The notes beneath the pieces were generated by a model. It saw only the letters and a list, made by a program, of their open reading frames with translations. It ran no database searches and was not told where the DNA came from. The translations under genes and the position numbers were made by a program. Below, in pieces: positions 10,006 through 54,678 of a stretch of 64,000 bases of DNA (position 1 is its first letter; the number at the start of each line of letters is the position of its first letter). This DNA is from Parcubacteria group bacterium. Its GTDB lineage: Bacteria > Patescibacteriota > Minisyncoccia > Moranbacterales > UBA11712. Location of the stretch: NCBI GenBank assembly GCA_041659685.1, contig JBAZXV010000007.1:6348-70347 (forward strand), given 5' to 3'.

Positions 10006-10208
10006 GAGCCTGTTTCAAAAGTCCGTATTCTGCTGCCATCCCTTCGGGAGATCACCCGCGGGGTGACAATTTCACAATTTCGGCTGCAAACAATTCACCG
10101 CTCGTCGGCATATACGCTGTATATTCCTCATCACGCTTCATTGTTTTCGCTCGAAATTTTGAAATTTCGCGACGGAAGAGACTTTCAAAACAGGCTTTAA
10201 GTTAAACG

Positions 10209-10246
10209 AAAAAAACAGCCCGTTGCAAGAAAGGGCTGTTTTTTGT
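10209..10246. terminator. bidirectional rho-independent terminator between manB-like and trpS
   Basis: aacagccc-gttgcaagaaa-gggctgtt hairpin flanked by an A-run and a T-run. Confidence 0.6.
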
Positions 10247-14654: not shown

Positions 14655-14739
14655 TGGGGATGTGGCGGAACTGGCAGACGCGCTAGCTTCAGGAGCTAGT
14701 AGTAGCAATACTGTGAGAGTTCGAATCTCTCCATCCCCA
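14655..14739 (+). tRNA. tRNA-Leu (anticodon CAG), long variable arm
   Basis: GGGGATGTGGCGGAACTGGCAGACGCGCTAGCTTCAGGAGCTAG... is near-identical in the D/anticodon region to E. coli tRNA-Leu(CAG); T-arm GAGAGTTCGAATCTCTC; acceptor GGGGATG/CATCCCC. Confidence 0.9.
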
Positions 14740-14756
14740 CAAATGAAAAATATTAA

Positions 14757-14808
14757 GCCGAAATTGGTACGGGGCAAGCTCGTGAGAGTTCAAATCTCTC
14801 CTTCGGCA
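14757..14808 (+). repeat. tRNA-like minihelix: partial duplicate of the tRNA-Leu T-arm with its own acceptor-like stem
   Basis: gtgagagttcaaatctctcc matches the tRNA-Leu T-arm (1 mismatch); flanked by GCCGAAA ... CTTCGGC-A; only 52 nt, no D or anticodon arm. Confidence 0.4.
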
Positions 14809-14878
14809 CAATTTAATCAATCCTTTAAAGAACAAAAGCACTGATCATGGATCATTGTTCTCTGTTCACTGAAAAAAA

Positions 14879-46883: not shown

Positions 46884-47092
46884 ATTGTTTGTTTGGATTA
46901 GCGAATAAATTGTAGCATTTTAAGGGGCGAAATGTAAATATCCGCTGAAACCTTATTGACTAACCTGTCTTTTTCCGATAGAATAACCCTTGTAACTTGG
47001 ATTTCAGACCGATTAACTGCTGATTTTGCAGGAGCCGGGCGATCATCAGGGAACGGCTCAAGAACGGAGATTAGTCAAAAAACAAGAACCAT

Positions 47093-47169
47093 GGCCCTAT
47101 CGTCTAGTGGTTAGGACAGCGGGTTTTTGACCCTGCGGGTCATCACCCGCAGGGTGACAATCCGTTAAC
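47093..47169 (+). pseudogene. truncated 5' copy of tRNA-Glu (first 47 tRNA nt) disrupted by a 30-nt hairpin in the anticodon; lacks T-arm and acceptor 3' strand
   Basis: Identical to nt 1-35 and 36-47 of the tRNA-Glu at 47424; insert tgaccctgcgggtcatcacccgcagggtga between anticodon positions 35 and 36. Confidence 0.55.
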
Positions 47170-47173
47170 ATAT

Positions 47174-47416
47174 ATGAATTACGTTTACATTTTGAAAAGC
47201 ATGGCAGAAAATTGGGCTTATATCGGATGTTGTGACGATTTAAGAAAAAGATTTTTACAACACAATTGCGGTAAAGTAAGATCGACAAAAGCGCGCCGTC
47301 CATATAAACTGGCTTATTATGAAGCTTACGGTGATTTAAGCTTAGCGCGGAAAAGAGAATTTGAACTGAAAAATAACAATAGCAAGAAGGAAGAACTGTT
47401 TGGAAGAATATTTTGA
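47174..47416 (+). CDS. GIY-YIG nuclease superfamily protein (UPF0213/Slx1-like small endonuclease)
   Basis: YVYILKS...WAYIGCCDDLRKRFLQHNCGK...STKARRPYKLAYYEAY matches the GIY-YIG catalytic module; 80 aa. Confidence 0.75.
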   Translation: MNYVYILKSMAENWAYIGCCDDLRKRFLQHNCGKVRSTKARRPYKLAYYEAYGDLSLARKREFELKNNNSKKEELFGRIF

Positions 47417-47423
47417 GAGACAT

Positions 47424-47495
47424 GGCCCTATCGTCTAGTGGTTAGGACAGCGGGTTTTCAATCCGTTAACCGGGGTTCGATTCCCCGTAGGGCTA
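47424..47495 (+). tRNA. tRNA-Glu (anticodon TTC)
   Basis: Acceptor GGCCCTA/TAGGGCT, D-arm GTCTAGTGGTTAGGAC, anticodon loop TTTTCAA, T-arm CGGGGTTCGATTCCCCG. Confidence 0.85.
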
Positions 47496-47505
47496 CGCAC
47501 AAAAA

Positions 47506-47529
47506 TGAGGCTTATGAAAGCCTTTTTTT
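47506..47529 (+). terminator. rho-independent terminator after tRNA-Glu
   Basis: aggctt-atga-aagcct followed by a T7 run. Confidence 0.55.
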
Positions 47530-47570: not shown

Positions 47571-47619
47571 ATGCGTAGGTATGCATAGGTTTGCATAGGT
47601 TGTAATACTGTGCTATACT
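47571..47619 (+). promoter_or_regulatory. three tandem 10-bp repeats (ATGCRTAGGT) overlapping a TTGCAT-17-TATACT promoter
   Basis: atgcgtaggt atgcataggt ttgcataggt at 47571-47600; -10 TATACT at 47614-47619. Confidence 0.5.
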
Positions 47620-47642
47620 GGAAACAGCTAAATAATGATTTT

Positions 47643-48386
47643 ATGGAACAAAAACCATTAATTTCAATCGGAGAGGCTGCCAAAAAAATGCATATTTCGA
47701 TAGATACCTTAAGGCGTTGGGACAATGAAGGACGTTTTCCGGCTGTCCGGTTAAGCGGAAAACGCTTCTATAGAGCGAGTGACATTGAAAAATATTTGGC
47801 AAAATTAACCATAGCAGAGGTGGATATTTTTGAAGCAGCGAAAAAATGGGCTTCGAACAACTCGGCGACCGAGCCCGATCAGTTGTTTTATTGTAAAGAT
47901 AGTTCAGTTTTTCAATATCGGCTGCACAAATTAGAAAATGCTCTCAGCGGTATCGCTAAAATAAGAGATTCATTTCCCTTGCTTACATCTATAACCGGTG
48001 AAATAGGCAACAATTCTTTCGATCACAATATTGGACAATGGCCGGACATACCTGGAATATTTTTCGGTTATGACATAGAGAGAAGAGAGATTGTATTAGC
48101 TGACAGAGGACAGGGAATTCTAGCTACTTTAAAAAGAGTAAAAAAAGAGTTGTCGTCGGATGCAGAAGCTTTGCGAGTCGCGTTTACGGAAATAATTTCT
48201 GGACGTTCCCCTGAAGCAAGAGGCAATGGATTGAAGTATGTGAAGGAAGTTGTCATGGAAAACGATATTTACCTTTTTTTTCAAACTGGCAATGCTGGGT
48301 TAGAATTAGAGAAAGGCGATCAAGCTCTTAATATTATAAAAGTAGACAACCACATTCGTGGTTGCATAGCTTTAATAAAATTTTAA
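47643..48386 (+). CDS. MerR/excisionase-type HTH fused to GHKL (anti-sigma-kinase RsbW/SpoIIAB-like) ATPase; the ORF track begins at 47610 but the promoter -10 box (47614-19) sits inside that extension
   Basis: HTH ISIGEAAKKMHISIDTLRRWDNEGRFPAV; GHKL N-box GEIGNNSFDHN, G1 ADRGQGI, G2 ARGNGLKYV. Confidence 0.65.
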   Translation: MEQKPLISIGEAAKKMHISIDTLRRWDNEGRFPAVRLSGKRFYRASDIEKYLAKLTIAEVDIFEAAKKWASNNSATEPDQLFYCKDSSVFQYRLHKLENALSGIAKIRDSFPLLTSITGEIGNNSFDHNIGQWPDIPGIFFGYDIERREIVLADRGQGILATLKRVKKELSSDAEALRVAFTEIISGRSPEARGNGLKYVKEVVMENDIYLFFQTGNAGLELEKGDQALNIIKVDNHIRGCIALIKF

Positions 48387-48394
48387 GTTAAAAT

Positions 48395-48688
48395 ATGAAT
48401 ATTGAACTAAAAAAATTTGGAACTACGCTTACTTCCAGACAATCTGGCAAAGAAGCTTTGGCGGCTATTCAACCCAGTTTTAAATCAGTCTCGGAGAAAG
48501 AGGATATCATGGTTGATTTCGCTGGGGTCGTTACCTTTTCCCCTTCATGGGGAGATGAATTTATAACCCCTCTTTATGAAAGATATGGGGATAGATTAAT
48601 TCTTAAGAATACTGCTAACTCTTCCGTGCAAGCAACGCTGCGTTTACTCGGAGGCATAATAAAGACTCAATTCAGGGAGATTGACTAA
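48395..48688 (+). CDS. STAS-like (DUF4325-type) small protein, putative GHKL partner
   Basis: 97 aa; size and spacing of an anti-sigma-antagonist-like partner directly after a GHKL gene; assignment by pattern only. Confidence 0.45.
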   Translation: MNIELKKFGTTLTSRQSGKEALAAIQPSFKSVSEKEDIMVDFAGVVTFSPSWGDEFITPLYERYGDRLILKNTANSSVQATLRLLGGIIKTQFREID

Positions 48689-48706
48689 TCGGTTTACTAA
48701 AAAATT

Positions 48707-49357
48707 ATGGAAAGAAAAGAACAAAAGAATATAATCAAGCCGGAGATTATTGCTAATCATATAACAACTTTTGCTGAACAAATAGTTTCTTTAGCGCAAA
48801 AAAAGGGAAAGGTGACAGCGGAGTTTAATGATATTATGCTCACCGCCGACAGGGAATCGAGTGTGCAGAACATCATTGATGATTACAGAAGAAAAGTTGA
48901 TGAGGGTGACGAACAATACTATAATTCGCCCAAAGGGAAGCGTGCGGCTCTTGAGATTGAAAAACTGAAAGAAAAAGAAAAACAAGAGAAGGAGCGCAGA
49001 GTCCTTGAGAGTGAAAAACGGACAGAGGAAGTGCAACGGAAACACGATGAATTGATGCAACAATTGCCCAATTTGGATTTTGCCAACTATTCTTCGGTTC
49101 TGAATTGGCTCTGCGAATTTCAAGATCCCAGCAGACAAATCGGAGTTGTGAAGCGTCAAAGCGAAGTTCTGGACATATTCGCGAAGCATGGCTATCAGCC
49201 TCTTAGTGAAGCGGCTGATAACGAGTCTTCCGATGCCGAAAGCCGAGCTCGATATATCATTAGTCGAGCGCTCGATGATTTAAAGAGCGTCGCGGGCGCT
49301 ATTCACCCAGCTATTCACAAGTTCGCTAAAGATTGGAAGAAGCAGTTTAAAGCTTAA
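48707..49357 (+). CDS. hypothetical protein with central charged coiled-coil (216 aa)
   Basis: KE-rich coiled-coil region; no identifiable catalytic motif. Confidence 0.4.
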   Translation: MERKEQKNIIKPEIIANHITTFAEQIVSLAQKKGKVTAEFNDIMLTADRESSVQNIIDDYRRKVDEGDEQYYNSPKGKRAALEIEKLKEKEKQEKERRVLESEKRTEEVQRKHDELMQQLPNLDFANYSSVLNWLCEFQDPSRQIGVVKRQSEVLDIFAKHGYQPLSEAADNESSDAESRARYIISRALDDLKSVAGAIHPAIHKFAKDWKKQFKA

Positions 49358-54484: not shown

Positions 54485-54556
54485 GTCCTTGTAGTTCAAT
54501 GGATAGAACACCAGCCTTCTAAGCTGGTTATGCAGGTTCGATTCCTGCCGAGGACA
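54485..54556 (+). tRNA. tRNA-Arg (anticodon TCT)
   Basis: GTCCTTG/CGAGGAC acceptor, anticodon loop CTTCTAA, T-arm GCAGGTTCGATTCCTGC. Confidence 0.8.
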
Positions 54557-54559
54557 CAT
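54542..54559 (+). repeat. 18-nt direct repeat, copy 1 (3' end of tRNA-Arg, ttcctgccgaggacacat)
   Basis: Exact second copy at 54661..54678, about 100 bp downstream. Confidence 0.6.
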
Positions 54560-54660
54560 CGAACGGGAAAGGGGTCGGGAAAGCGGGAGTTTTCCCGGGG
54601 TGGAAGAATTGAAACCGCAGGGTTTCAAGGAGCTCCGCCAGCCGGCAGAGCGACGTTCGC

Positions 54661-54678
54661 TTCCTGCCGAGGACACAT
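54661..54678 (+). repeat. 18-nt direct repeat, copy 2 (duplicate of the tRNA-Arg 3' end)
   Basis: ttcctgccgaggacacat identical to 54542..54559; no tRNA body precedes it. Confidence 0.6.

Follow-up and report, generated by a model that had tools for sequence, protein, structure and literature searches.

Free-standing GIY-YIG homing endonucleases associated with tRNA genes are described from phages T4 and T6, where segB is located in a tRNA gene cluster, promotes its own inheritance, and causes breaks that are resolved by recombination between a tRNA 5' region and the end of segB, resulting in tandem segmental amplification; homologues of SegB are statistically associated with tRNAs (PMC2330249; PMC13096335). 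The present analysis concerns a GIY-YIG gene that is likewise set among tRNA genes, on a stretch of 64,000 nucleotides (hereafter the window, meaning the whole stretch of DNA analysed) from a Parcubacteria group bacterium, a member of the Candidate Phyla Radiation (CPR; assembly GCA_041659685.1, contig JBAZXV010000007.1, positions 6,348 to 70,347). The gene encodes 80 amino acids (aa) and is located between a partial tRNA-Glu interrupted by a 30-bp palindrome (copy A) and an intact tRNA-Glu (copy B). We favour, with somewhat more confidence than doubt, the reading that this locus is a homing-type selfish and horizontally mobile cassette of 331 bp, which lies inside a partial tandem tRNA-Glu duplication and uses tRNA sequence as portable homology. 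SegB is a protein of about 200 aa that includes a DNA-binding part, whereas the open reading frame (ORF) of the window has 80 aa, resides on cellular CPR chromosomes, belongs to no PHROG family, and was found on none of the viral contigs examined; moreover, SegB loci possess neither a hairpin-disrupted half-tRNA nor a double-hairpin repeat.

A second precedent is provided by the free-standing homing endonuclease genes of fungal mitochondria, which bring a replacement for the end of their target gene and push the original end aside, where it is left as a pseudogene fragment, as in partial atp6 and cob duplications (PMC6279837). As in the window, the nuclease gene is found between an intact gene and a partial duplicate, and the piece that it carries keeps the gene functional. 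In Allomyces, the endonuclease gene at atp6 is reportedly accompanied by such a replacement gene end. The mitochondrial cases, however, concern organelle protein genes of which the 3' end is duplicated, and the replacement differs in sequence and so confers immunity, whereas in the window the target is a tRNA gene, the duplicated part is usually the 5' part, and the regenerated tRNA does not differ from that of the empty allele.

Palindromes comparable to the one in copy A are known from fungal and sponge mitochondria as double-hairpin elements (DHEs) or repetitive hairpin elements, which are short, G+C-rich, composed of two adjacent stem-loops with the stems as the most conserved part, dispersed in intergenic DNA and RNA genes, and suspected to be mobile by an unknown mechanism (PMC10085805; PMC2800124; see also Paquin et al. 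2000, as cited in these papers). The CPR hairpin resembles the DHEs, as these are described, in having two adjacent stem-loops and in being dispersed; unlike the DHEs, it has a fixed length of 30 bp and a dyad symmetry that includes the loops, and is found in the loops of tRNA fragments and in frame in proteins. Repetitive extragenic palindromes (REPs) owe their mobility to a nuclease gene of their own, which lies between copies of the repeat and encodes the REP-associated tyrosine transposase (RAYT), an HUH transposase. The window locus does not belong to the REP/RAYT class, since its flanked gene is, according to Pfam, of the GIY-YIG and not the HUH type, and the link between GIY-YIG gene and hairpin is putative. 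Rickettsia palindromic elements (RPEs), which are in-frame palindromes, measure approximately 100-150 bp, compared with 30 bp for the CPR hairpin. The Rickettsia elements are mentioned in PMC3767692.

Group I introns in the tRNA anticodon loops of Patescibacteria use position 35/36 (tRNA-Asn), and some of them carry homing endonuclease genes (PMC13011429). The window insert shares both the host phylum and the position with these introns, but it contains no ribozyme according to Rfam, and the function of the tRNA would be kept at the DNA level by a spare 5' half instead of by splicing; the survey of Patescibacteria tRNA introns (PMC13011429) makes no mention of the arrangement. For the protein, the best match in both sequence and fold is the UPF0213/Slx1-YhbQ-YazA family (1ZG2, 1YWL; PMC7017083), with which it has the single-domain size in common. 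Slx1 itself, unlike the window protein, has a zinc-finger domain and requires the partner Slx4. We know of no established tie between bacterial UPF0213 members and tRNA-gene duplications or palindromic repeats. The individual parts of the locus are of known kinds, while their combination (an 80-aa UPF0213-type nuclease, a regenerated tRNA, a half-tRNA plugged by a hairpin at 35/36, cellular CPR genomes, and many tRNA types) appears to be new. No description of it was found in the literature searched. An earlier reading of the locus from its letters (the original prediction) had called the layout non-standard; this layout is recurrent across the CPR.

Organization of the tRNA-Glu locus

All parts of the locus are on the plus strand, except the palindrome, to which no strand is assigned, and all sequences compared derive from metagenome assemblies. 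Copy A starts with nt 1-35 of tRNA-Glu (47093..47127; 35/35 identical to 47424-47458, E=3.7e-15), comprising the 5' strand of the acceptor, the D arm, the 5' strand of the anticodon stem and the loop through U35; this part aligns to nt 1-35 of the solitary tRNA in the empty allele and, like it, follows the native promoter and leader. The 30-bp double-hairpin palindrome (47128..47157), which reads TGACCCTGCGGGTCA followed by TCACCCGCAGGGTGA (TGACCC-TGC-GGGTCA, then TCACCC-GCA-GGGTGA), exactly separates anticodon positions 35 and 36. Copy A then resumes with nt 36-47, from C36 to the variable loop (47158..47169; 12/12 identical to 47459-47470), and ends there, nt 48-76, with the T arm and the 3' acceptor strand, being missing. 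The GIY-YIG ORF (47174..47416, stop codon included; Pfam PF01541) begins 4 nt past copy A, and its stop codon is separated by the 7-nt spacer GAGACAT (47417..47423; identical in the related locus L164) from copy B, an intact tRNA-Glu(UUC) (47424..47496) that was detected by ARAGORN and by Rfam (tRNA, 64.4 bits), is 73/73 identical to the solitary tRNA-Glu of the relatives L162 and L163, and is presumably functional. The original prediction had described these same elements, namely nt 1-47 of tRNA-Glu present twice, a 30-nt palindrome between anticodon positions 35 and 36, an 80-aa UPF0213/Slx1-like GIY-YIG ORF after the first copy, and a complete tRNA 7 nt past the ORF; its anatomy held in every part, with the palindrome now refined, family-wide, as two tandem 15-nt mini-hairpins.

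Alignment of the occupied L164 with the empty L162 delimits an inserted unit of 331 bp (47128..47458), composed of the palindrome (30), nt 36-47 (12), 4 nt, the ORF (243), 7 nt, and a second nt 1-35 (35). The unit can equally be written as 47093-47423, with copy A through the ORF placed directly upstream of the tRNA; a repeat of 38 nt leaves the placement ambiguous, and over this repeat the two descriptions are indistinguishable.

Upstream, a promoter scan identified a sigma-70-like candidate (TTGACT-17-TAGAAT, 46956..46984; 10/12 matches), by which copy A, the ORF and the tRNA are likely driven. Promoters are present at the corresponding position in relatives, including those with a solitary tRNA-Glu (TTGACC-17-TATCAT in L162 and L164, TTGACT-17-TAAGAT in L163). 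The promoter is followed by a leader of 108 nt (46985..47092), where relatives with an empty site have approximately 10-25 nt. This leader is possibly the decayed remnant of an older orphan copy: similarity of the leader to copy A plus hairpin was found in L001 (p<0.003) and, marginally, in L164 (p~0.02), both of which carry older decayed orphan copies 5' of copy A, while in the window it is not significant (p~0.13), and comparison of the window leader with other loci revealed no resemblance. The unit is closed by an intrinsic-terminator-like hairpin with a T run (47507..47524), orthologous to the L162 sequence downstream of a tRNA 3' fragment. A 108-aa ORF on the minus strand (47097-47423) extends across the whole unit and is regarded as a chance ORF in AT-rich sequence.

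The GIY-YIG protein

The ORF matches the Pfam GIY-YIG profile PF01541 over residues 1-71 with 45.6 bits against a cut-off of 22.6 (E=9e-12), so that the profile comparison proposed with the original prediction bore out the assignment. A profile built from the ORF and six homologues matches the UPF0213 structures 1ZG2 (E=4.7e-9) and 1YWL (E=3.8e-4), and the length of 80 aa falls within the range of single-domain UPF0213 proteins (approximately 80-105 aa). The AlphaFold model (pLDDT 80) displays a beta-beta-alpha-alpha-beta-alpha-alpha topology, with 1ZG2 (UPF0213), the catalytic domain of I-TevI (1LN0/1MK0) and Slx1 (4XM5/7CQ3) as the nearest folds in the PDB. Residues Y5 (in VYI), Y16-I-G18, R26, H30, E62/E64 and N68 are invariant in seven homologues sharing 65-81% identity; we take them, from their positions and by comparison with I-TevI, to have the corresponding catalytic roles. 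On sequence and model, the protein is a putative nuclease of the UPF0213/Slx1-YhbQ type consisting of the catalytic domain only.

No PHROG family matched the ORF at E<=1e-3, so that membership in the phage Seg families is not borne out by sequence, and the NCBIfam model grpIintron_endo scored 16.3 bits against a cut-off of 56. A phage origin is unsupported: besides the lack of a PHROG match, the patterns used to scan IMG/VR contigs retrieved no relatives, and a single solo hairpin on one viral contig was the only find. A role in defence is likewise unsupported, PADLOC having given no match for the ORF. The window contains only one GIY-YIG ORF of this type. An exact look-up of its 80-aa sequence gave no match, since the database copy of the ORF (P0001) is called 9 residues shorter.

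Recurrence of the layout across genomes

A scan of one genome per species yielded 37 loci, nearly all of them in metagenome-assembled genomes (MAGs) of CPR/Patescibacteria, and three further loci were obtained by exact protein look-up; the layout is present in about 30 species-level CPR genomes. An intact tRNA on the same strand was found within 250 nt in 27 of 32 close-homologue loci. In 25 of these 27 the tRNA begins 3-57 nt past the ORF stop, and in the other two it precedes the ORF. The tRNA is mostly Glu(UUC), but Glu(CUC), Ser(GGA), Cys and Asn also occur, and more distant ORFs from a metagenome sample are accompanied by Pro, Val, Tyr, Ser(GCU/CGA) or Arg tRNA; clades of the ORF match the identity of the tRNA. 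The ORF is almost always preceded by a 5' fragment copied from the same tRNA, and a double hairpin is located within 60 nt 5' of the ATG in 27 of the 32 close-homologue loci. In every Glu locus that bears an insert the hairpin is positioned at exactly 35/36, while the 3' end of the copy A-type relic differs among loci (about nt 39-48). Many loci, including L003, L005, L009, L013, L027 and L030, also have a hairpin-bearing 3' fragment of the tRNA, with the hairpin in the anticodon loop and sometimes in the T loop too, after the intact tRNA, and additional D-loop hairpins were found in the 5' fragments of L003, L021, L024 and L029. As judged from these comparisons, the layout goes back a long time and has recurred in CPR bacteria at several tRNA types; it did not arise in a single recent event.

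On a 360-kb Moranbacteria contig (L012, 1420-2156), two 331-bp units, each comprised of half-tRNA, hairpin and GIY-YIG ORF, are arranged in tandem with 100% identity and are followed by an intact tRNA-Glu. Outside the CPR, distant relatives of the ORF are located 37-55 nt 3' of tRNA-Met in Bryobacteraceae (L036, 1388-1716) and in Draconibacterium (L039, 1372-1810), the ORF of the latter being followed by a tRNA-Met 3' fragment with a TCCGCC-AATT-GGCGGA hairpin.

Two of these loci show further peculiarities. In L013 (1501-2100), two serial GIY-YIG ORFs are placed around tRNA-Ser(GGA), the second of which begins right after the hairpin-bearing 3' fragment, and this fragment is from another tRNA-Ser lineage than the intact gene. 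In L039, two segments of the tRNA-Met 3' fragment are replaced by hairpin-like inserts, one of them being TCCGCCAATTGGCGGA, and the ORF seemingly has an in-frame stop.

Empty sites and horizontal transfer

Syntenic relatives were located through the 538-aa protein encoded upstream of the module, and the three closest syntenic contigs (P0009, P0010 and P0013) were compared by their gene tables alone. Empty sites were found in L163 and L162 (64% and 76% aa identity in the 538-aa protein), which have a solitary tRNA-Glu and neither copy A, hairpin nor ORF; these are the sister genomes with an uninterrupted tRNA-Glu against which the original prediction was to be aligned. The P0010 contig (80% in the 538-aa protein) has, according to its gene table, a gap of 365 nt at the site and no GIY-YIG gene called. 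In L164 (76% in the same protein) the module is found at the same place, and the flanks of L164 and L162 are 85% identical, with promoter and leader aligning up to copy A. The site is therefore polymorphic, being occupied in the window, L164 and L001-L003 and empty in L162 and L163. A stable, conserved partial tRNA at orthologous loci had been named as an observation that would speak against an insertion; such a partial tRNA is present in some relatives and absent from others, i.e. it is patchy and not fixed.

The unit has the same length of 331 bp in the window, L164 and L012. Between the window and L164 it is 87% identical, compared with 74% for the adjacent host gene. At codons for identical amino acids, synonymous differences between these two genomes were found at 12 of 65 codons in the ORF versus 68 of 140 in the host gene (Fisher p=3e-5), and at four-fold sites 1 of 11 versus 18 of 27 differed (p=0.003). 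At synonymous sites the ORF has diverged far less than the flanking host gene, which would make the element younger than the split of the hosts and, on this small sample, indicates horizontal transfer of the unit between the lineages of the window and L164. Together with the matches of the ORF, the empty L162 and L163 and the same unit in L164, this supports the suggestion that a small mobile element has inserted into, or duplicated part of, a tRNA gene. The epithet homing-type fared less evenly: mobility is supported, while classical homing features are lacking in that the protein comprises no more than a catalytic domain and the tRNA that is kept equals the empty-site allele.

A dispersed double-hairpin repeat

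The insert at 47128-47157 is the sole perfect double hairpin in the 64 kb (shuffles expect 0) and, as single-stranded DNA, folds with -14.4 kcal/mol (z=-6.2). Among 26 distinct inserts linked to an ORF, the family structure consists of two tandem 15-nt mini-hairpins, each with a 6-bp stem and a 3-nt loop: 99.0% of the cells pair in this model, with compensatory changes in 9 of the 12 pairs (48 cells), none of 500 shuffles was as good, and slid controls gave 24-46% paired. A single long hairpin was rejected as the family structure (80.8% of cells paired), although the window copy can form either structure and folds best as the long hairpin. Few stem pairs depart from Watson-Crick pairing, and they do so without bias (of 492, 6 are G-U, 3 A-C and 4 other mismatches), and the outer loop positions of hairpins 1 and 2 are complementary (100% and 85%), which gives the 30-mer a dyad symmetry that includes the loops. 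Nearly pure Watson-Crick stems and a loop-inclusive dyad symmetry characterise a palindrome that is read as DNA on both strands, and not a one-strand RNA structure; the hairpins are conserved at the DNA level and under selection.

The hairpin pattern was also scanned for independently of the ORF, and at least 120 metagenome sites and one viral contig carry the double hairpin; on this pattern evidence the window palindrome is assigned to a dispersed family of 30-bp double-hairpin DNA repeats. Among the matches listed, which represent 120 distinct sites, 27 are in tRNA fragments, 19 have a GIY-YIG gene within 600 nt, and 90 show neither association. Within tRNA fragments the hairpin is positioned in the T loop (GGTTC/GAATCC), the D loop or the anticodon loop. 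Of 192 hairpins, only 1 gives back a whole tRNA when deleted, which shows that the hairpins live in fragments and not in working tRNA genes. Solo and tRNA-linked hairpins have T at -2 in 86% and 69%, and A at +2 in 60% and 66%, respectively. Direct repeats of 6-8 nt flank 7 of 91 solo hairpin sites, so that target-site duplication is no general feature.

Again among the matches listed, 17 of the 91 non-tRNA sites have the hairpin in frame in a long ORF (at least 60 codons on each side), always in the single stop-free frame and encoding decapeptides of the QPKADQPLA or HPxGGHPxGE type. This in-frame insertion in proteins of CPR bacteria, which is similar to that of the RPEs, appears to be undescribed. 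Loci with an in-frame hairpin include L044, L048, L055, L062, L063, L069, L079, L080, L098, L102, L129, L137, L138, L150 and L151, among others.

Besides the intact copy, the window contains one degenerate double hairpin at 10037-10066, which reads cATCCCTTCGGGAgA followed by TCACCCGCGGGGTGA and then CAAT; its second hairpin is 14/15 identical to that of copy A. The surrounding intergenic region (10006-10242) is bracketed by the imperfect inverted repeats gcctgtttcaaaagtc and gactttcaaaacaggc.

Proposed mode of propagation

Read as a mobile cassette with portable tRNA homology, the locus would work as follows. The cassette would consist of the hairpin, the 12-nt relic of nt 36-47, the GIY-YIG gene and a fresh nt 1-35. 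On insertion, the fresh 5' half would fuse to the resident nt 36-76, so that one intact tRNA-Glu (copy B) would always be regenerated, and the original 5' half would be stranded upstream as a hairpin-broken orphan (copy A). Transcription of the unit probably starts at the tRNA promoter, and cleavage by RNase P at copy B probably sets the 3' end of the mRNA. Spread would most likely proceed by homologous recombination or double-strand-break repair, with nt 1-35 of copy A as the left and copy B as the right homology arm. The putative nuclease, a bare catalytic domain of the structure-selective type, probably makes the initiating break, either in the anticodon region of the tRNA or at the palindrome. 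For this there is the precedent of SegB, a tRNA-associated phage GIY-YIG enzyme that cuts tRNA-containing DNA and leads to segmental amplification via microhomology between tRNA and segB (PMC13096335; PMC2330249). As the target would be regenerated, repeated rounds could produce tandem arrays and decayed orphans upstream, while recombination between copies A and B would remove the unit cleanly and would thus explain the patchy distribution.

Several roles can be envisaged for the hairpin. It may be a cis-site for a structure-selective nuclease, in line with the Slx1-like fold (PMC7017083), or a plug that slows deletion by splitting the 47-bp A/B repeat into 35 and 12, or both; it might also be a passenger that prefers tRNA-loop-like TTY/VA sites and survives only in neutral fragments.

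If this model is true, a selfish nuclease gene inhabits an essential and conserved gene without an intron or intein, the spare tRNA half rebuilding the gene at the DNA level. Conserved tRNA sequence would serve as homology arms usable in any related genome, which would explain how the cassette crosses between CPR lineages. The ultra-small CPR bacteria have streamlined genomes with few classical mobile elements. The 30-bp hairpin family, which adds about 10 residues of the QPxADQPxA type to proteins, has a bearing on gene calling, tRNA annotation and protein-family alignments in MAGs. The large and functionally obscure UPF0213/YhbQ-type GIY-YIG family would gain a testable context of tRNA genes and palindromic DNA, and, to judge by the relatives found beside tRNA-Met in Bacteroidota and Acidobacteriota, this context may extend beyond the CPR.

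Alternative explanations

Several observations weigh against a homing-type cassette. The 80-aa protein, which Pfam, AlphaFold and fold comparison agree in describing as a catalytic domain only, has no DNA-recognition module for a long target site. The hairpin disrupts copy A but not copy B, which matches the tRNA of empty sites at 73/73 positions and leaves the occupied allele without sequence immunity. The synonymous-site test concerns 80 codons and could be biased by constraints at the nucleotide level; moreover, between the window and L001 the ORF and its flank are equally divergent at synonymous sites, which is compatible with long residence at this tRNA, and the patchy distribution could result from vertical descent with frequent loss. 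The L164 contig terminates inside the repeat, and its apparent second hairpin-bearing copy is possibly an assembly ambiguity. The boundaries of the unit also differ from a simple insertion at 35/36 in part of the loci: the acceptor stem of copy B differs from that of the orphan pieces in L001, L003, L009, L026 and L030, and the acceptor strands of the two orphans (5' and 3') of L003 and L009 match each other but not those of the intact tRNA between them. Entry of the ORF with a whole tRNA into a hairpin-bearing tRNA fits these better than the simple 35/36 model, and this seems to be how the ORF arrived at loci whose intact tRNA differs from both orphans. Finally, three quarters of the listed hairpin sites (90/120) are linked to neither a GIY-YIG gene nor a tRNA, so that the hairpin may be an independent passenger.

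In a rival explanation that we regard as possible, though rather doubtful, the GIY-YIG protein mobilises the 30-bp double hairpins and forms with them a new, REPtron-like type of two-part mobile system, a GIY-YIG counterpart of REP/RAYT. The tRNA-embedded 331-bp unit would be the autonomous master, which persists by regenerating the tRNA that it interrupts; the solo hairpins in intergenic DNA, tRNA loops and coding sequence would be non-autonomous copies at TTY/VA sites, and the nuclease would act on the palindromes as cruciforms or hairpins. In keeping with this, the hairpin is found at the unit junction in all Glu loci, its perfect pairing has been kept by compensation across ORF lineages that are about 50% identical, and solo and tRNA-linked sites have a common flank preference. 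Among the hairpin matches listed, 16% are within 600 nt of a GIY-YIG gene and 22% in tRNA fragments, an enrichment of approximately 50-fold on a rough genome-fraction estimate. Hairpins from the same genome are alike (L002 and L080; in the window, 47128 and 10037), the Bacteroidota locus L039 has its TCCGCC-AATT-GGCGGA hairpin in a tRNA-Met fragment beside the ORF, and the structure-selective nuclease Slx1 is among the fold neighbours of the protein (PMC7017083). However, 75% of the listed sites have no GIY-YIG gene nearby, the window has only one or two hairpins per 64 kb, and the enrichment near GIY-YIG genes could reflect a common niche, orphan tRNA loops being both favoured targets and neutral ground. 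It further counts against this explanation that, to our knowledge, no GIY-YIG transposase is known.

It might also be that nothing at the locus is mobile at present, which we consider unlikely. Copy A would then be a decaying tandem duplicate, the hairpin an unrelated miniature palindrome in neutral DNA, and the ORF a resident housekeeping UPF0213 nuclease that is merely included in the transcription unit of the tRNA. UPF0213 genes are indeed widespread on chromosomes (1ZG2 and 1YWL are from Bacillus and Enterococcus), the hairpin family is mainly unlinked to the ORF, the equal divergence of ORF and flank between the window and L001 fits, and the many amino-acid changes with few synonymous changes between L164 and the window suggest relaxed constraint. 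Against such a relic, the ORF is missing from syntenic close relatives and has the deficit in synonymous rate relative to the host gene (p=3e-5); the same layout is found at no fewer than seven tRNA identities with matching ORF clades, the ORF always lying between an intact tRNA and a hairpin-bearing fragment of the same tRNA; the tandem doubling in L012 is exact; and a neutral relic would not retain hairpins that are 99% Watson-Crick.

Very improbable, in our judgement, is a device acting at the RNA level, in which the hairpin-bearing half-tRNA would either undergo splicing, as a split or intron-containing tRNA, or serve as a tRNA-mimic leader in the regulation or stabilisation of the nuclease mRNA. 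The inserts are located in loops of the cloverleaf that could accommodate them (D, anticodon and T), 35/36 is also the group I intron site of Patescibacteria tRNA-Asn (PMC13011429), and in most loci the hairpin is 7-44 nt 5' of the start codon, with no Shine-Dalgarno sequence visible. Yet copy A lacks the T arm and the 3' acceptor strand, removal of the hairpin yields a complete tRNA in just the one case mentioned, the Watson-Crick purity and complementary loops are signatures of a DNA palindrome, the same 30-mer is found in frame in proteins and in intergenic DNA, and Rfam detects no intron, ribozyme or other family at the locus. A group I intron, known ribozyme or other non-coding RNA was rejected, as Rfam returned only tRNAs (for the locus at the E-value threshold, for the whole window at the gathering threshold) and the downstream 'exon' is a complete tRNA; a spliced tRNA intron, whether with an archaeal bulge-helix-bulge or otherwise, was rejected because nt 48-76 are lacking from copy A and because of the restoration count.

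An integrase-type island with the duplicated tRNA piece as att site, or a mis-assembled repeat, can hardly be credited: tRNA genes are classical integration sites with partial tRNA repeats, and a three-gene island absent from relatives (47610-49357) lies just downstream, but the 331-bp unit neither contains nor adjoins an integrase or recombinase gene, the tRNA is duplicated in its 5' portion and not in an att-type 3' portion, the flanked segment is only 296 bp, the three-gene island is outside the repeat, and the arrangement is seen again in dozens of assemblies that are independent of one another, some contigs of which measure 294-360 kb.

Other features of the window

The gene order in this part of the window is 538-aa protein, tRNA-Glu module, three-gene island, YfbR-type HD protein, HU, TsaD, PrsW and HSP20. 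The island, directly 3' of tRNA-Glu, encodes a MerR/HTH_17 protein (PADLOC match to mad1, E=7e-12), a DUF4325 STAS-like protein and a 216-aa protein, and may be defence-related. It is missing from the syntenic L163 and P0010 contigs, which suggests that the flank of tRNA-Glu is also an integration hot spot.

Two other tRNA genes in the window are followed by partial copies of themselves. Behind tRNA-Arg(TCT) (54485-54557), an element at 54558-54676 is comprised of a hairpin-rich spacer of 97 nt and a 22-nt copy of the 3' end of the tRNA (nt 52-73, 95%). The spacer is homologous to an element of approximately 110 nt after tRNA-Glu in L162 (2625-2750, minus strand) and in L017-L019 (about 1830-2010), which starts as an inverted T-loop copy ((GGGGAA)TCGAAC...) and runs as far as a direct copy of the 3' end of the tRNA. 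Such elements, for which no Rfam match was found, are a second, non-coding family of tRNA-3'-end elements. Behind tRNA-Leu(CAG) (14656-14740), a tRNA-like mini-helix (14758-14813; GCCGAA...GTGAGAGTTCAAATCTCTCCTTCGGCACA) has a T arm that copies nt 58-77 of the Leu tRNA (95%).

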